From Faecalibaculum rodentium (GTDB taxonomy: Bacteria; Bacillota_I; Bacilli_A; Erysipelotrichales; Erysipelotrichaceae), in the NCBI RefSeq assembly GCF_001564455.1, contig NZ_CP011391.1, positions 1,020,001 through 1,052,000 of the forward strand: 32,000 nt of DNA. Direction: 5' to 3'. The position numbers and the translations under genes were made by a program. The notes beneath the pieces are model-generated. The model made no database searches and was not told the origin of the DNA. It saw only the letters and a list, made by a program, of their open reading frames with translations. Numbering within the stretch: the stretch's first letter is position 1; each line of letters starts with the position of its first letter. Below are positions 12,680-27,630 of the stretch, piece after piece.

Positions 12680-15076
12680 ATGTACGATCACAAAAGCATT
12701 GAAAAGAAGTGGCAGGACCGGTGGCTGAAGGAAAAAACCTTTGCCACAGATACCTCCGACTTCTCCAAACCCAAATACTATGTCCTGGACATGTTCCCAT
12801 ATCCAAGCGGCAATGGCCTGCATGTTGGCCACCCCGAGGGATATACGGCAACAGACATTATCGCCCGCAAAAAGCGCATGGACGGATACAATGTGCTGCA
12901 TCCCATGGGCTTTGATTCCTTCGGACTGCCTGCTGAACAGTATGCCATCCAGACAGGGAATCACCCCTCAGAGTTCACAAAGAAAAACATTGACCATTTC
13001 AGAGATCAGATCCAGGCTCTTGGGTTCAGCTACGACTGGGACAGAGAAATAGCGACCAGCGATCCTGACTACTACAAATGGACGCAGTGGATCTTCCTTC
13101 AGCTGTACGAACAGGGACTTGCCTACATCGATGAAATCCCGGTTAACTGGTGTCCCGAACTGAAGTGCGTGCTTGCCAATGAAGAAGTCATTGACGGCAA
13201 ATCGGAACGTGGCGGATACCCCGTTGTCCGGAAACCCATGCGGCAGTGGGTGCTGAAAATCACAGAGTATGCAGAGCGGCTGCTGAAGGACCTGGATGAT
13301 GTCGACTGGCCTGAGTCCACCAAGGAGATGCAGCGCAACTGGATCGGCAAGTCAAATGGTGCCAATGTGGTCTTTGGAATTGATGGTCATGACAGGGAGT
13401 TCACAGTATTCACCACCCGCTGTGACACACTGTTTGGCGCAACCTATTGTGTTCTGGCCCCTGAACATCCCTTTGTGGATGAAATCACCACACCGGAGCA
13501 GAAAGAAGCGGTAGAAGCCTACAAGAAAGCCTGTGCAACCAAATCCGATCTGGAACGCACGGAACTGAACAAGGAAAAGACAGGTGTCTTCACCGGCGCC
13601 TATGCCGTCAATCCGGTCAACGGGAAAAAAATCCCCATCTGGATCTCCGATTATGTTCTCGCAAGTTATGGCACAGGTGCAATCATGGCTGTTCCGGCCC
13701 ATGACACCCGGGACTATGAATTTGCCAGGAAGTTCGGCCTGGAAATCATACCGGTGCTGGAAGGCGGAAACATTGAGGAAGAAGCCTGGACAGAAGACGG
13801 GGTTCACATCAACTCCGAATGGCTGAATGGCCTGGGCAAAGAGGAAGCCATTGCAAAAATGATTGCCTGGCTGGAGGAAAAAGGCGTTGGCGAAGCCAAA
13901 ACCACCTACAAACTCCGTGACTGGCTGTTTTCCCGGCAGCGGTACTGGGGGGAACCGATTCCCATCATCCACATGGAAGATGGGACCACCCGTACCGTGG
14001 ATATAAAAGACCTGCCGCTGGAACTGCCGGCAACAGACAATTTCCAGCCGGCAGACAATGGCGAGTCCCCTCTGGCCAATGTGCCGGATTTCCTGAATGT
14101 GGAAATTGACGGCGTCAAAGGAACAAGAGAAACGAACACCATGCCCCAGTGGGCCGGATCCTGCTGGTATTACCTGCGGTATATCGATCCCAAAAACCAG
14201 GACACCCTGGCTGACAAAAAGCTGCTGGAACACTGGCTTCCTGTGGATCTGTATGTCGGTGGAGCGGAACATGCCGTTCTGCATCTGCTTTACAGCCGGT
14301 TCTGGCACAAGGTCCTGTATGACCGTGGCGTTGTTCCCACGAAGGAACCCTTCCAGAAGCTGTTCCACCAGGGCATGATCCTGGGGGAGAACGGTGAAAA
14401 AATGTCCAAGTCCCGTGGAAATGTGGTAAATCCGGATGAGATCATTGAGTCTCATGGTGCAGATGCCCTGCGGGTATATGAAATGTTCATGGGTCCTCTG
14501 GAAGCGGGTCTGCCATGGAGTGCCAGAGGCCTCGACGGAACCAGGAAATGGCTTGAGCGGGTATGGCGTGCCTATCATGGTGCAGTGGAAATCACGGAAA
14601 CCAATGACCATGCGCTGGACAAAGTCTACAACCAGACGGTGAAGAAAGTGACAAAGGACATTGATACTCTGAACTTCAACACGGCTGTCAGCGCCATGCA
14701 GATTTTCATGAACGAAGTCTACAAACACAAATCCATGCCGGTTGAGTATGCAGAAGGATTTGTCAAACTTCTGTACCCCTTTGCACCGCACCTGGGAGAA
14801 GAGCTCTGGGAAGAAGTGTTCCACAACAGCGAATCCATTGCCTACACGTCCTGGCCTGAATGGGATGAATCCAAACTGGTGGAGGCAGTCAACACCATCG
14901 TTGTGCAGGTCAACGGAAAAGTCCGCGGCAAATTTGAAGCTGCAGCAGGCACTGATGACAAGGCACTGGAGGAAACAGCCCTTTCTCTGGGTTCTGTACA
15001 GAAACACCTTGAGGGCAAGGATGTCAAAAAAGTCATTGTCATCAAGGGCAGAGTTGTGAATATTGTTGCGAAGTAG
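12680..15076 (+). CDS. leuS: Leucine--tRNA ligase
   Basis: 798 aa. It begins [19 protein letters not shown]-type motif is HVGHPEGY and the KMSKS motif is [17 protein letters not shown] at 12665-12670. Confidence 0.97.
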
Positions 15077-22841: not shown

Positions 22842-23849
22842 TCACTGTTCTGGTTTGTACCTCTTCCCCTGCCAGGAATCCCGACAGGCCAGCTCCCGGT
22901 CCACGGCATTCATTGTCACTCGTTTCTTGACTGTCCACTCCGGAGCCAGGAGATTGTCAGCCACACCGTCGCCGGTGATCCTCTCCACAACCATCTCCGG
23001 TGGCAGGATCTCGAGCTGGTCGCAGACAATCTGCACATACTCCTCCATGGAAAGAAGCGGGAAGGGGGACTGACGATAGTCCTGTCCCAGGGCACTGTCA
23101 GAAATCACATGCAGCATATGGATTTTCACCGCATCCGGTTTCAGCCTCGCCACCAGTCTGGCGGTCTCCATCATGTCCTCATGGCTTTCACCCGGGAGTC
23201 CGTTGATGATGTGCAGACACGTTCGAATCCCGGTTCCCTGCAGCTGCTTCATACAGGCAACAAGTATTGAGGTATTGTGACCCCGGTTCATGGCAGCCAT
23301 GGTGGCATCCCTGCCACTCTGCAGACCCATCTCGATCCAGACCGGCTTGACACGATTCATCTCTGACAGCCACAGGATCTTCTCTGCATCCAGACAGTCG
23401 GGCCTTGTGGCAATGGAAACTTCCGCCACATCCTCCCAGCTGAATACAGGCTCCAGTATCCGCCTGAGGTCCGGCAGCGGAGCATAGGTGTTGGAATAGG
23501 ACTGGAAATAGGCGATGGCAGATGCATCCGGCCATTTTTTCCGTGCTCTTTCCAGGCCCGCTTCGAACTGCAGCCGCAGATCTTCACCGGAATGCAGAAT
23601 CGTGTCCCCGGACCCCTGAGACGAACAGAAGCGACAGCCACCCCATCCCTTTGTTCCATCCCGGTTTGGACAGGTGAAACCTGCATCCAGAGGAATCTTG
23701 GCCAGCTTTTTTCCGTACTGCTGCTTCAGGGCATAGGAATAGGTGTGGTATCGCTTGTTTGTGTCTGAAAAAGGGAAGGGACTCAGTGTATGCCCTTCAG
23801 AAGGATGCCTGTTTTTTTCAGAAAGTTCATCTGTTTGCGTATGATGCAT
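22842..23849 (-). CDS. TIGR01212-family radical SAM protein (YtqA/YhcC-like)
   Basis: 335 aa. LDAGFTCPNRDGTKGWGGCRFCS is the characteristic CPNRDG...GGCxFC cluster region of this family. AGGAGG lies about 12 nt upstream. Confidence 0.85.
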   Translation of the reverse strand: MHHTQTDELSEKNRHPSEGHTLSPFPFSDTNKRYHTYSYALKQQYGKKLAKIPLDAGFTCPNRDGTKGWGGCRFCSSQGSGDTILHSGEDLRLQFEAGLERARKKWPDASAIAYFQSYSNTYAPLPDLRRILEPVFSWEDVAEVSIATRPDCLDAEKILWLSEMNRVKPVWIEMGLQSGRDATMAAMNRGHNTSILVACMKQLQGTGIRTCLHIINGLPGESHEDMMETARLVARLKPDAVKIHMLHVISDSALGQDYRQSPFPLLSMEEYVQIVCDQLEILPPEMVVERITGDGVADNLLAPEWTVKKRVTMNAVDRELACRDSWQGKRYKPEQ

Positions 23850-24150: not shown

Positions 24151-25164
24151 CTACAGACTTCGGCCAATGACCTCCGCGATCTTCCTGCCTTTTTCCACCA
24201 GCGAGGCGTAGTTTTCCGGCTTCAGCGACTGAGCGCCATCGGAAAGGGCATTCTGGGGATCGCAATGCACCTCTATGATCAGCCCGTCGGCACCGGCAGC
24301 GATCGCCGCCAGGGACACAGCCTCCACCAGCTTCCAGTCACCCGTTGCGTGGGAAGGATCGATCACGATCGGCAGATGGGTGCGTTCCTTGATGATGGGA
24401 ATCACTGACAGATCTAGGGTGTTCCGGGTGAATTTCTCGAAGGTCCGGATCCCGCGTTCGCAGAAGATCACATTCGGGTTGCCCTCCGACATGATGTATT
24501 CCGCGGCCATGATCCATTCTTCGATCGTGTTGGCCAGACCGCGTTTCAGCAGCACCGGCTTCTTTGTGCGTCCGACTGCTTTCAGCAAGTCGAAATTCTG
24601 CATGTTTCGGGCACCGATCTGAATGATGTCCACGTTTTCCACGAATTCATCCAGCTTGTCTGCCGACATCAGTTCTGTCACAACCGGCAGGCCGGTTTCC
24701 CTGCGGGCTTCAGTCAGAAGTTCGATTCCCTGGGTTCCCAGGCCCTGGAAGGCATAAGGCGAGGTCCGGGGTTTGTAGGCTCCACCCCGCAGCATATCCG
24801 CACCGGCATCCTTCACGGCCCGGGCAGCAGACAGGATCGACTCCCGGTTTTCCACCGCACAGGGACCGGCCATCATGATCACCTTGCTGCCGCCGATCTT
24901 CAGACCATTGACATCCACGATTGTATCCTCGGGATGGAACATCCGGTTGGCCAGCTTATAGGGCTGAGCCACGCGCTTCACATCATAGACGATGGGATTC
25001 GCCAGCAGGGACCGGTCGTCGATGACCGAAGTGTCGCCTACCAGACCAAAGACATCGTAGTTTTCGCCTACGATTTTTGTCGTCTTCAGACCCTTTTTCT
25101 CCAGGTTTTCAATCAGCCGTGAGACTTCCGCCTCAGGGGCTGTCTTTTTCAGTGTAATGATCAT
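24151..25164 (-). CDS. aroF: 3-deoxy-7-phosphoheptulonate (DAHP) synthase, type I-beta with an N-terminal regulatory domain
   Basis: 337 aa. Motifs GPCAVE, RGGAYKPRTSPYAFQGLG, IGARNMQNF and DPSH are diagnostic of the KDOPS-like DAHPS class. A roughly 70-aa N-terminal extension resembles the ferredoxin-like regulatory domain. Confidence 0.92.
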   Translation of the reverse strand: MIITLKKTAPEAEVSRLIENLEKKGLKTTKIVGENYDVFGLVGDTSVIDDRSLLANPIVYDVKRVAQPYKLANRMFHPEDTIVDVNGLKIGGSKVIMMAGPCAVENRESILSAARAVKDAGADMLRGGAYKPRTSPYAFQGLGTQGIELLTEARRETGLPVVTELMSADKLDEFVENVDIIQIGARNMQNFDLLKAVGRTKKPVLLKRGLANTIEEWIMAAEYIMSEGNPNVIFCERGIRTFEKFTRNTLDLSVIPIIKERTHLPIVIDPSHATGDWKLVEAVSLAAIAAGADGLIIEVHCDPQNALSDGAQSLKPENYASLVEKGRKIAEVIGRSL

Positions 25165-25306: not shown

Positions 25307-26566
25307 TCATCCAGATGATGCAGGTCCATCGACTTGCAACCCCAGCGCCCGGCACACAGCTTCCAGTCCTTCTTGCAGACTGCCGTCATTGGTCACTGTC
25401 AGATCCGCCCAGGACGCATAGACAGGAGCCCGCCTTCCATACAGCGAGTCAAAGCCCTGTTTCAGCATCGGCCTGTCTGCATCCTCATGCACCATCAATG
25501 CGGGGTCGCGCTTCAGCCACAGGATGATGCCGTTGCGGTGAAGCAGATCCAGGTTCTCCGGCCGTTCGATGATGCCCCCGCCGCATGCGATCACCTGACC
25601 GGTGTCCAGGCCCGCCTGACGGGCAGCTTCCGTTTCCCGCCTCCGAAACCCGGCCTCCTGTTCCTGCCTGAATATTTCGGGGATGGACAGACCGGCAGCC
25701 GCTTCGATCTCTGCGTCCAGATCCGTAAAGGACAGACCCAGCGTTTGGGCCAGCCGTTTCCCCAACGTGCTTTTTCCGCAGGAAGACATCCCAATGAGGA
25801 CAATGTTCCGCCGCTGTCTCACAAGATCCGCCAGTACCTGTTCCGTGATGGCATCAGGCACCTGGACATCAAAGAAGATCTCATGAGCCCGCACCGCCTG
25901 CGTCACCAGCATCCGCAGACCGTTGTCATGGGGAATGCCCAGAGACCCGGCCTGCAGCAGCAGACGGGTCTTCAGCGGGTTGTAGACCAGATCGAACACA
26001 AATTCCAGCTGGTCAAACCCCGACAAGTCCAGTGCCTGGCTCTCCACATCCGGATGCATCCCAGCGGGGGTGGCATTGATCACCACCGCTGCATCCGGAT
26101 ACATCCGGGCTGCCTGTTCTGGCAGGACGCAGCCTTCCGCCTGCTTCCGGTAGACCGTCACCGGACGGCCACCCAGGGACTCGATCACCGCCTGTACAGC
26201 TGTGGCAGCTCCGCCACGTCCGAGCACCAGGACAGTTTTGTCCCTTACGTCAATCCCGGCATGTTCCAGAGTCGCCAGGATCCCCGCGCAGTCGGTGTTC
26301 TCGCCATACAGCCTTCCGCCGCGGTTGACCACACAGTTCACCGCCTGTGCCCGCTTCGCCAGATCCGATACCTCGTCACACGCAGCCAGAGCTGTCTTCT
26401 TGTAGGGAATCGTCACATTGATCCCCGAAAATTCCCGGGTCTCAAAAAATTCATCCACCCTGTCCCTGGGCACTTCCCGCAGAATGTATCTGTCGTTTCC
26501 AAGCCCGCTGTGAATCTGTTTTGAAAACGAATGGCCAAGGTGCTCGCCAATCAGTCCATACTCCAT
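25307..26566 (-). CDS. aroE/aroK: Bifunctional shikimate dehydrogenase / shikimate kinase fusion
   Basis: 419 aa. The N-terminal half is AroE-like (GLIGEHLGHSFSKQIH, NVTIPYKK, ENTDCAGI, VLGRGGAA). The C-terminal third is AroK-like (Walker A IGMSSCGKSTLGK, DLD, FRRRE, ACGGG). Confidence 0.9.
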   Translation of the reverse strand: MEYGLIGEHLGHSFSKQIHSGLGNDRYILREVPRDRVDEFFETREFSGINVTIPYKKTALAACDEVSDLAKRAQAVNCVVNRGGRLYGENTDCAGILATLEHAGIDVRDKTVLVLGRGGAATAVQAVIESLGGRPVTVYRKQAEGCVLPEQAARMYPDAAVVINATPAGMHPDVESQALDLSGFDQLEFVFDLVYNPLKTRLLLQAGSLGIPHDNGLRMLVTQAVRAHEIFFDVQVPDAITEQVLADLVRQRRNIVLIGMSSCGKSTLGKRLAQTLGLSFTDLDAEIEAAAGLSIPEIFRQEQEAGFRRRETEAARQAGLDTGQVIACGGGIIERPENLDLLHRNGIILWLKRDPALMVHEDADRPMLKQGFDSLYGRRAPVYASWADLTVTNDGSLQEGLEAVCRALGLQVDGPASSG

Positions 26567-26605
26567 TGCATTGCCGCCTCCTGTCAGGACCTGAATCCAG
26601 TCCGC

Positions 26606-26636
26606 AAAAAAGGCATTCCGAATCCAGAATGCCTTT
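26606..26636 (-). terminator. Leader terminator T2 upstream of aroE/aroK
   Basis: Minus strand: AAAGGCAUUC, loop UGGAUUCG, GAAUGCCUUU, then UUU. The stem is a perfect 10 bp, and 40 nt separate it from the ATG. Confidence 0.75.
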
Positions 26637-26637
26637 G

Positions 26638-26685
26638 AAAAAACGCCTGAACAAAATCACCGGACTGTGCCGATGTGTTCAGACG
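26638..26685 (-). terminator. Leader terminator T1 upstream of aroE/aroK
   Basis: Minus strand: CGUCUGAACA ... UGUUCAGGCG (10 bp, one G-U pair; an inner CAUCGG/CCGGUG stem), then U6. The stem starts directly after the mini-ORF stop codon. Confidence 0.7.
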
Positions 26686-26718
26686 TCAGATAAATCGAAA
26701 ATACTGAAACATGTTCAT
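26686..26718 (-). CDS. Candidate leader peptide MNMFQYFRFI (10 codons, 3 Phe and 1 Tyr)
   Basis: ATG AAC ATG TTT CAG TAT TTT CGA TTT ATC TGA on the minus strand. The ATG lies 6 nt after the TAGACT -10 and has no SD. Confidence 0.35.
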   Translation of the reverse strand: MNMFQYFRFI

Positions 26719-26724
26719 GACGCC

Positions 26725-26753
26725 AGTCTACTCAATCTGAAAACTGTTTTCAA
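26725..26753 (-). promoter_or_regulatory. Candidate promoter of the aro leader
   Basis: Minus strand: TTGAAA (26753-26748), 17-nt spacer, TAGACT (26730-26725). Confidence 0.5.
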
Positions 26754-26899
26754 CCCCAACTTTGAATTTTCATAAAAGATTTTCATACCACTGTATCTTG
26801 TCCCTTCCATGCCGATGACGGCTGTGCAGTCCTGAAGCTTCCACCATTCTGATTCTGCCTTGCATCACTCCAGGCTGCATTCTCCGGACGTATTCGGGA

Positions 26900-26928
26900 T
26901 TGAAAACCACCCCTGATTGTGATGTGAT
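26900..26928 (+). promoter_or_regulatory. Candidate aroD promoter (predicted leaderless)
   Basis: TTGAAA (26900-26905), 17-nt spacer, TGTGAT (26923-26928), then GAGACC and ATG 26935. No SD. An in-frame TGA at 26920-26922 excludes an upstream start. Confidence 0.4.
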
Positions 26929-26934
26929 GAGACC

Positions 26935-27630
26935 ATGATTACAATCGTACCGTTGTTTGTAGATGACACTGAAACATTTCAGAGCGCCTTTGAAGAAGCG
27001 GTCCATTCCCGCTGTGACTGGATTGAACTGCGTCTGGACAGGGCATTGAATGATCTGGATCCATTCCGGCTTCTGGAGATCCTGGCTGTCCTGGATCCCG
27101 GGGACAAAAGACTGCTGTATACCATTCGCACGGACAGGGAAGGGGGAGAGATCTCCCTGACAGATACAGAGTACAAAGAACTGGTCCGTCATCTGTGCAG
27201 GCTGAATGGACTGGTGGATGTGGAGCTCTCGCGTCTGGACCACGAGGAACCGCTGGCCTCTTTCAGCAACCCGGAACAGACTGTCCTGTCCTTTCATGAC
27301 TTCGATCAGACCCCGGCGGACCTGGATGTCATCTGGCATGCCATGGAGACGCACCATCCCCTGGTCCAGAAACTCGCCATTATGCCCCGTGATAAACAGG
27401 ATGTGGACCGGCTGCTGGAAAGCTGCCGTCAGCACCGGACAGAGTCAAGGAAAATTGCCATCGCCATGGGGGAACAGGGGACTGTCTCCAGACTCTGGGG
27501 AGATGCCTGGGACAGCTTTGCTGCCTTCTGCACCCTGTCGCAAAGCAGTGCACCCGGGCAGCTTTCTCTGGAAGAATGGCTTGTCAAGCGAACCGGAAAA
27601 AATGGCCCCTCAGACGGCACAAACTGTTAA
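26935..27630 (+). CDS. aroD: 3-dehydroquinate dehydratase, type I
   Basis: 231 aa. Motifs WIELRLD, YTIRTDREGGE, LSFHDF, KLAIMP (Schiff-base Lys region), AIAMGEQGTVSR and APGQL match type I DHQase. Confidence 0.88.
   Translation: MITIVPLFVDDTETFQSAFEEAVHSRCDWIELRLDRALNDLDPFRLLEILAVLDPGDKRLLYTIRTDREGGEISLTDTEYKELVRHLCRLNGLVDVELSRLDHEEPLASFSNPEQTVLSFHDFDQTPADLDVIWHAMETHHPLVQKLAIMPRDKQDVDRLLESCRQHRTESRKIAIAMGEQGTVSRLWGDAWDSFAAFCTLSQSSAPGQLSLEEWLVKRTGKNGPSDGTNC

Follow-up and report, generated by a model that had tools for sequence, protein, structure and literature searches.

A conserved leader with a putative leaderless Phe/Tyr-rich ORF and tandem terminators upstream of aroE/aroK-aroF in Faecalibaculum rodentium: a candidate ribosome-mediated attenuator

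The aro leader and its genes

The aroE/aroK-aroF genes of Faecalibaculum rodentium are preceded by a leader that combines a promoter, a short open reading frame (ORF) rich in Phe and Tyr codons, here called the mini-ORF, and two intrinsic terminators in tandem (T1 and T2). Together, these elements probably form a transcription attenuator that responds to the supply of aromatic amino acids. The leader lies on the minus strand, and all coordinates are positions in a 32,000-nucleotide (nt) stretch of the F. rodentium genome (NZ_CP011391.1), referred to below as the window. An earlier note on this DNA had placed the promoter, the mini-ORF, both terminators, the Shine-Dalgarno (SD) sequence and the aroE/aroK start codon at this locus, and each of them is found there on reading the minus strand. 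The elements of the leader, followed by the genes around it, are as follows:

26753-26748, minus strand: -35 hexamer TTGAAA, from strand reading and a promoter scan
26730-26725, minus strand: -10 hexamer TAGACT, 17 nt past the -35 hexamer and exactly 6 nt (GGCGTC) ahead of the ATG
26718-26686, minus strand: putative leaderless mini-ORF, MNMFQYFRFI, with its TGA stop codon
26687-26642, minus strand: T1 outer stem, GACGUCUGAACA...UGUUCAGGCGUU, -22.9 kcal/mol, with a U6 run to 26638
26675-26658, minus strand: inner T1 hairpin, CAUCGG-CACAGU-CCGGUG, then AUUUUGUU, from a terminator scan
26635-26610, minus strand: T2, AAGGCAUUCUG-GAUU-CGGAAUGCCUU, -15.1 kcal/mol, with a U-run (U6) to 26606
26606..26636, minus strand: T2 with its U-run, AAAGGCAUUC...GAAUGCCUUU, the canonical and best-conserved terminator
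26582-26577, minus strand: SD sequence AGGAGG of aroE/aroK, from strand reading
25307..26566, minus strand: aroE/aroK fusion, shikimate dehydrogenase plus shikimate kinase (Pfam PF08501, Shikimate_dh_N, and PF01202, SKI), first gene under the presumed regulation
24151..25164, minus strand: aroF, DAHP synthase with an N-terminal ferredoxin-like regulatory domain (Pfam PF00793 and PF18152), second gene
22842..23849, minus strand: radical SAM gene (Pfam PF04055 and PF16199), possibly the last of the operon
Start at 26935, plus strand: aroD, divergent type I dehydroquinase, adjoined by the gene for HPF, a ribosome hibernation factor with 100% identity to the protein named for F. rodentium

The mini-ORF reads ATG AAC ATG TTT CAG TAT TTT CGA TTT ATC TGA, thus containing three UUU codons, one UAU codon and the rare Arg codon CGA, and the T1 stem begins within its stop codon. 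The promoter scan also calls TTGAAA-17-TAGACT as a promoter, with 9 of 12 matches. None of 200 shuffled sequences folds as well as the 166-nt leader (z = -3.3). A consensus terminator scan flagged only the inner T1 hairpin (26675-26658) in the leader; in our reading, the outer T1 was missed because its loop is too large, and T2 because its A-tract pairs with part of the U-run.

The earlier note had argued that the terminators are located inside the operon leader and work only on the minus strand. Both points agree with what was found: neither strand reading nor the promoter scan yields a promoter-like site between T2 and the aroE/aroK ATG in the window, and on the plus strand no T-run follows the T1 or the T2 hairpin. 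Bidirectional terminators serving aroD were rejected for this lack of a T-run. The earlier note saw no minus-strand gene upstream, where aroD diverges. A 221-residue minus-strand ORF at 26770-27435, considered as an upstream gene, has no Pfam match, runs antisense to aroD and was rejected. A 69-residue GTG ORF at 26660-26451 was also rejected; it has no SD sequence, and its frame relation to aroE shifts between relatives. No Rfam family reaches its gathering score in the leader, with the Phe, Trp, His, Leu and Thr leader families, riboswitches and the T-box included in the search, and matches at E <= 10 are of chance level only (RydC at 17.5 bits, small nucleolar RNAs).

Conservation in relatives and coding character of the mini-ORF

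Nine leaders were compared, namely that of the window and those of loci L003, L004, L006, L007, L129, L135, L137 and L048. The relatives' loci were fetched by homologues of AroE/K and of the neighbouring HPF protein rather than by motif. L048 alone came from a DNA pattern scan of metagenomes (TTGAAA-N17-TANNNT-N4-9-ATGAAY-N5-22-CGATTTW), and among the matches listed it was the only real one, the rest being AT-rich noise. Its sequence ends 11 nt past the stop codon, so terminators were assessed in the eight other, full-length leaders. A search of genome contigs with AroE/K returned two distant Treponema loci only and no close relative. AroE/K identity to the window amounts to 80% for L003, 70% for L004 and L005, 60% for L006 and 55% for L007. 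L137 derives from Faecalicoccus and carries an AroE/K fusion, and DAHP synthase directly follows the leader in L129/L130 and L135/L136. The leader layout persists as AroE/K identity falls from 100% to 55%; it is also found in Faecalicoccus and at the loci where DAHP synthase comes first.

All nine leaders share a -10 hexamer, a gap of exactly 6 nt and an ATG with no SD sequence. The -10 hexamer appears as TAGACT, TACACT, TATGCT, TAAAAT or TATTAT, with T1, A2 and T6 invariant in an alignment of eight leaders, while the -35 hexamer is identical in seven of the nine despite a diverged spacer. The orthologous ORFs, 9-14 codons long, encode MNTFQYFRFI, MNTFQYFRFM, MNKFHSYFRFI, MNLHRFTRF, MNPTHVFRFNN, MNPTKSFRFIH, MNPSKYYRFYN and MKVYSSNYFYFFNS. 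Their stop codon is UGA in seven of nine leaders (UAG in L137). It is separated from the T1 core by 0-1 nt in five of six lineages and by 5 nt in one. Two hairpins with U-runs, the second U-run being strong, and then an SD sequence are present in 8/8 full-length leaders, and a nested hairpin with its own U-run sits inside T1 in 7/8. Promoter spacers and hairpin loops have diverged, whereas hexamers, ATG and stems have not. The T2 stem sequence GCAUUC/GAAUGC is common to distant leaders. Compensatory stem changes, which the earlier note had named as something to look for, occur in T2 as two-sided pair changes at four positions (G-C/A-U twice, U-A/C-G and C-G/U-A). These were read by eye from the sequences; formal pair counting on MAFFT alignments was dropped because the arms of distant leaders misaligned. 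The persistence of the ORF, its aromatic codons, the position of its stop and both terminators in orthologous leaders supports the proposal, first made in the earlier note, of a leaderless Phe/Tyr ORF acting as a candidate ribosome-mediated attenuator.

The arrangement of these elements is not a product of chance. Both strands of 1.68 Mb were scanned for a -10-like hexamer, 6 nt, an ATG, an ORF of 6-20 codons with at least two aromatics, and a hairpin with a U-run. Beyond the aro leaders, this layout was matched at only four unrelated places, and a second terminator was present in none of the four. Two other readings of the conserved sequence were rejected. A TGAA..TTCA inverted repeat spanning the start of the ORF was considered as a DNA operator, but its spacing ranges from 2 to 5 nt among the leaders. 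A longer ORF, reached by read-through of the UGA, has an open frame in the three closest leaders and closes after 6 codons in L006 (sequence read by eye).

In some relatives, a terminator U-run is predicted to pair with the downstream SD sequence AAGGAG. This concerns the T2 U-run in L129 (~5655-5690) and L135 (~3785-3815), and the T1 U-run in L006 (~165-225). Such pairing is not found in the window; in these relatives, it may provide an additional, translational level of control.

The putative targets, aroE/aroK and DAHP synthase, belong to the pathway of the very amino acids that would be sensed, and the leader follows them through rearrangements. L131 and L133, with aroE separated from the operon, lack the leader, and so does L138, which has no aro genes. 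At the former two loci (L131, 4310-5922; L133, 4404-6000), the genes aroE, aroD (encoded on the other strand) and aroK-aroF stand apart, with no mini-ORF or terminator leader, and aroE itself looks leaderless (TACAAT, 6 nt, ATG). The radical SAM gene comes after aroF in every related locus; in L138 (6935-8000), it stays beside the HPF gene, with a leaderless-type start, despite the loss of the aro genes and of the leader.

This linkage bears on the idea that the leader is an independent small gene, encoding either an aromatic peptide of 9-14 residues or a small RNA that acts in trans, with the aro genes expressed by unregulated leak. A promoter, a short ORF and two strong terminators do resemble a self-contained unit. 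Trans-acting products of attenuators also have precedent in Sinorhizobium, where the attenuator-derived RNA rnTrpL and the leader peptide peTrpL play roles in trans (PMC6614838, PMC7298713). Nevertheless, an independent small gene is very unlikely here: with no promoter-like sequence from T2 to aroE/aroK, the aro genes depend on read-through, the leader moves and vanishes with them, and the N-terminal half of the peptide is not conserved.

The invariant 6-nt distance from the -10 hexamer to the ATG suggests that the leader mRNA starts at or next to the A of the ATG at 26718. Leaderless mRNAs seem to be common in F. rodentium, judging from the frequency of the same geometry: TANNNT, 6 nt and ATG without an SD sequence are found at 4 of ~18 real genes in the window, compared with 1.1% of all ATGs. 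These starts, at 6130 and 6804 on the plus strand and 16004 and 17832 on the minus strand, have the hexamers TAGAGT, TACAAT, TATAAT and TAAAAT and belong to genes for a His phosphatase, a HAD hydrolase, a LexA-like repressor and a TPR protein. The divergent aroD (26935, plus strand) has the same spacing without an SD sequence, TTGAAA-17-TGTGAT-6-ATG, and its geometry, TTGAAA-17-TGNNAT-6-ATG, is kept in L003 and L004.

Translation of the mini-ORF is favoured by its pattern of change and by its composition. Differences in ORF length keep the frame, with L006 having one extra codon along with synonymous TAT/TAC and ATC/ATT changes. Phe and Tyr interchange, giving YYRFY in L135 and YFYFF in L137 versus YFRFI, so that the nucleotides differ and the codons stay aromatic; the motifs upstream of the aro genes are Y-F-R-F, Y-Y-R-F-Y and Y-F-Y-F-F. 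No Trp codon occurs in any of the nine leader ORFs. Phe and Tyr make up 32/88 in-frame codons (36%) over the nine leaders, compared with 15/79 and 13/79 (17-19%) in the other two frames and 6.2% in the window genes. The mini-ORF is therefore likely translated, and its amino-acid content points to Phe and Tyr as the sensed residues.

At the peptide level, the N-terminal half is free to vary, and what is conserved is the aromatic content and an F-R-F core, found in seven of nine leader peptides; L135 has Y-R-F-Y instead, and the core is absent in L137 (YFYFFNS). Such a core could belong to an arrest peptide (...F-R-F-x-stop) of the TnaC or SpeFL kind, which would stall the ribosome at or near the stop codon in response to a small molecule and thereby mask T1. 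The C-terminal F-R-F is the best-conserved part of the peptide and the UGA stop recurs in 7/9 leaders; moreover, a ribosome stalled at the stop, which adjoins T1, would extend over 6-10 nt of the 5′ arm. However, the FRF-x motif is missing from L137 (YFYFFNS, UAG) and L135 (YYRFYN), a peptide of 9-14 residues is hardly long enough to fill the exit tunnel, and a metabolite-induced stall that raises the expression of biosynthetic genes would need an unusual signal. An arrest peptide is thus highly improbable.

Proposed attenuation and the evidence against it

The preferred reading, to which we assign a probability of roughly 0.7 from sequence comparison, is a cis-acting, ribosome-mediated transcription attenuator that senses charged tRNA-Phe and tRNA-Tyr and controls aroE/K-aroF, possibly together with the radical SAM gene. 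The specific occlusion step within it is held with lower confidence than the attenuator as a whole. Transcription from the A of the ATG at 26718, or from next to it, would yield a leaderless RNA, and a 70S ribosome would load onto the 5′-terminal AUG and translate the 10 codons. With tRNA-Phe and tRNA-Tyr charged, the ribosome would get to the UGA and depart, upon which T1 would close and the polymerase would halt at the T1 U-run. Polymerases slipping past T1 would be caught by T2, ~35 nt further on. With charged tRNA-Phe or tRNA-Tyr scarce, the ribosome would park on UUU-CGA-UUU, towards the 3′ end of the ORF, which would bring its leading edge up to the base of T1. Inside the polymerase exit channel, the lowest T1 pairs, those bordering the U-run, could then not form, and the polymerase would read into aroE/K. 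The inner T1 hairpin and its U-run may pause the polymerase so that the ribosome catches up. Steric occlusion is proposed here because no antiterminator was found and because the stop codon adjoins the T1 core. In this working scheme, T2 would be a constitutive, partly efficient second terminator that lowers basal expression.

A number of observations weigh against ribosome-mediated attenuation, some of them in the ORF and others in the RNA structure. Because the region is T-rich, aromatic codons are only about twice as frequent in frame as in the other frames, and the per-sequence shuffle P values for this excess range from 0.007 to 0.45. All 22 of the leader Phe codons are UUU and never UUC, with TTT accounting for only 41% of Phe codons in the window genes. 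The Arg by the last Phe codon is CGA in the window (26697-26692), L003, L004, L006, L007, L129, L135 and L048, CGA being the rarest Arg codon in the window genes (13/204, 6%); the L137 leader is without CGA. Synonymous sites are nearly invariant among the three closest leaders. The choice of UUU and CGA suggests selection for slow decoding or an RNA-level constraint, and conservation of the ORF beyond the needs of the peptide makes an RNA-level role possible.

Constrained folding adds to these difficulties. With a ribosome masking the last Phe/Tyr codon or the stop codon, T2 persists in every fold, and only the T1 outer stem is disturbed, partly or fully. Passage of T2 has no explanation in the model. 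Neither the folds nor pairing tests across the leaders revealed a conserved, mutually exclusive antiterminator. In tests of the RNA before the T2 3′ arm is made, pairing between the T1 3′ arm plus U-run and the T2 5′ arm had energies of -0.6 to -6.8 kcal/mol, and 10-75% of shuffles of the same composition did as well. This classical 2:3 antiterminator, being weak, not conserved and no better than shuffles, was rejected. The GCGUUU/AAAGGC pairing previously suggested for bypass of T2 had to be abandoned likewise, as it is neither conserved nor better than shuffled controls. Other alternative pairings sought by eye (UUUCAG/CUGAA between ORF and T1 5′ arm, UCGAU of the ORF with AUCGG of T1, T1 5′ arm with T2 loop, and ORF with SD sequence) were each limited to one or a few leaders and were rejected too.

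The geometry of the ribosome poses a further problem. For a ribosome that lacks charged tRNA at the last aromatic codon, T1 pairing begins +11 to +16 from the P-site codon. The earlier note had assumed that a ribosome on the last codons covers the T1 5′ arm; this holds at the stop codon, whereas starvation at the last Phe/Tyr codon would place the ribosome next to T1 only. A starved ribosome would accordingly be expected merely to touch T1, and one terminating normally at the stop codon to mask it more, which would leave the sign of the response resting on dwell time and not on geometry. In addition, Bacillus RNA polymerase outruns ribosomes, so that ribosome-based attenuation is hard to achieve without a pause.

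The lack of an RNA-only route past T2 would be accommodated if a trans-acting protein or RNA factor responsive to aromatics controlled T1 and/or T2, with the UUUCGAUUU stretch or the T2 stem as its putative binding site and the codons as such irrelevant. Conservation at the nucleotide level, including wobble positions and the invariant UUU and CGA, is consistent with a binding site, as is the retention of the T2 stem GCAUUC/GAAUGC across distant leaders. Against a trans-acting factor stand the frame kept across ORF length differences, the ATG fixed at the expected transcription start, and the Phe/Tyr swaps, which alter the nucleotides (UAU UAC CGA UUU UAC in L135; no CGA in L137). Furthermore, no repeated motif of the TRAP/RAT kind is visible by eye, and no candidate regulator gene is linked in any locus. 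A trans-acting factor is therefore unlikely. It is weakened, together with the independent small gene and the arrest peptide, by the kept frame, the Phe/Tyr swaps and the gain and loss of the leader with the aro genes.

Control could also be post-transcriptional. A ribosome stalled on the 5′ ORF would then block decay of the RNase J type and stabilise leaked transcripts, the terminators being constitutive dampers. In every fold, the position of the ribosome makes no difference to T2 and little to T1, which fits this idea, and the ORF lies at the extreme 5′ end, where a stalled ribosome would cover nucleotides 1 to ~37. In the Bacillus ermC leader, a stalled ribosome indeed stabilises the mRNA. 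Yet protection from decay accounts neither for the 0-1 nt spacing kept between stop codon and T1 core in 5/6 lineages nor for the conservation of two strong terminators, and as the principal mode of control it appears improbable. A decay-stabilising effect may well act alongside attenuation.

A more specific version of the attenuator is speculative and rather doubtful. It would work without any antiterminator: the ribosome on the leaderless ORF would be a steric clamp at the foot of T1, and either T2 would serve as a delayed checkpoint or the ribosome would shield the 5′ end from decay. If this were true, only long, starvation-type stalls would give productive aro mRNA. It would also mean a ribosome-timed, two-checkpoint design in a Bacillota lineage where coupling of polymerase and ribosome is not expected.

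Comparison with known systems

In Bacillota, T-boxes, TRAP and riboswitches are the mechanisms usually invoked for amino-acid control, and fast "runaway" polymerases are seen as an obstacle to ribosome-mediated attenuation in this phylum. Classical attenuation of this type is considered rare there (PMC1262725). T-box leaders (RF00230) provide a functional counterpart within the same genome. The earlier note's three T-boxes elsewhere in the window are real, and its statement that the aro leader has none agrees with the Rfam search:

12399-12591, plus strand: T-box preceding leuS (12680-15076), above the Rfam gathering score
17882-18072, plus strand: T-box preceding tyrS, above the Rfam gathering score
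29729-29998, plus strand: third T-box, 74 bits, below the Rfam gathering score of 93 (E = 1e-14)

Judged by synteny with L129, L131 and L135, the third probably precedes an ileS gene that extends beyond the end of the window. A 610-residue minus-strand ORF at 29994-31826 has no Pfam match and is probably spurious. T-boxes read tRNA charging directly, whereas the aro leader would sense it through the ribosome. Charging of tRNA-Tyr is read by a T-box at tyrS and apparently by a leader peptide at the aro genes of the same genome. The window also contains a complete 16S-23S rRNA operon (1276-5931, plus strand).

The idea of a ribosome that acts by itself, without a competing helix, has a parallel in pyrE and pyrBI of E. 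coli, where the ORF ends at or in the 5′ arm of the terminator and the ribosome itself blocks closure of the hairpin. The signal in those operons is polymerase speed, set by the UTP level, and close coupling leads to read-through. In the aro leader, it would presumably be the time that a ribosome spends on hungry codons.

Like the enterobacterial pheL-pheA and pheM-pheST, which are regulated by charged tRNA-Phe (PMC11802643), the F. rodentium leader has a leader peptide rich in Phe codons, an intrinsic terminator and Phe-related target genes. The enterobacterial ORFs differ in being SD-led, with the Phe run inside region 1 and clear 1:2, 2:3 and 3:4 pairings. In the F. rodentium leader, the aromatic codons are upstream of the first hairpin and include Tyr, and no 2:3 pairing was found. 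For Erysipelotrichales, the order to which F. rodentium belongs, and likewise for the Bacillus cereus group and Peptostreptococcaceae, His-leader attenuators have been predicted that show the same succession of a short leader peptide, an "attenuator hairpin" and a "terminator hairpin" (PMC9413887). They differ in their His codons, in the his operons that follow and in the antiterminators proposed for them, and the Erysipelotrichales examples come from other genera (Catenibacterium, Coprobacillus, Eggerthia and Erysipelatoclostridium); for the Bacillus and Peptostreptococcaceae groups, a ribosome binding site of the leader is labelled in the figures (PMC9413887).

The earlier note had regarded a leaderless attenuator in front of shikimate-pathway genes as undescribed, which does not hold in view of published leaders in other phyla. 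Mycobacteria and Deinococcus deserti, the latter with an example of 10 residues, are known to have leaderless leader peptides (PMC4007540; bioRxiv 10.1101/834739). As in the aro leader, their ORF is at the 5′ end of the transcript, is enriched in the relevant amino acid and precedes genes for amino-acid metabolism or tRNA synthetases, a 10-residue cysS leader being one example. The amino acids concerned are different, as are the phyla.

In Corynebacterium glutamicum, aroR-aroF has a short ORF with a motif of the Phe-Tyr-Phe type upstream of DAHP synthase, as does the present leader, with this gene first in L129 and L135 and second in the window. Neshat and colleagues are said to have described C. 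glutamicum attenuators as leaderless transcripts in 2014. What sets the F. rodentium leader apart from aroR-aroF is its tandem terminators, the lack of an evident antiterminator and a first gene that is mostly the aroE/aroK fusion. The aroR peptide, located upstream of the DAHP synthase gene aroF, raises expression under Phe limitation through ribosome stalling (PMC11802643, PMC4046766, PMC7356990). A title in the reference list of PMC4046766 refers to a C. glutamicum ilvB leader peptide formed without a ribosome binding site. The F. rodentium leader and aroR probably arose independently, as they belong to different phyla, Actinomycetota versus Bacillota (Erysipelotrichia).

Among the papers searched, none described an aromatic leader-peptide attenuator in Bacillota. 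The principle is already known, also for the aromatic pathway; what is new is a conserved Erysipelotrichaceae family that combines a very short, putatively leaderless ORF with tandem terminators and no evident antiterminator. The leader offers a handle for annotating aromatic amino-acid regulation in Erysipelotrichaceae and points to frequent leaderless mRNAs in this family. In a cultivable mouse-gut bacterium, it also represents a compact system for studying how a ribosome on a 33-nt ORF affects termination. Its main interest lies in a candidate switch that would do without the classical alternative helix, in a lineage where such control is unexpected.

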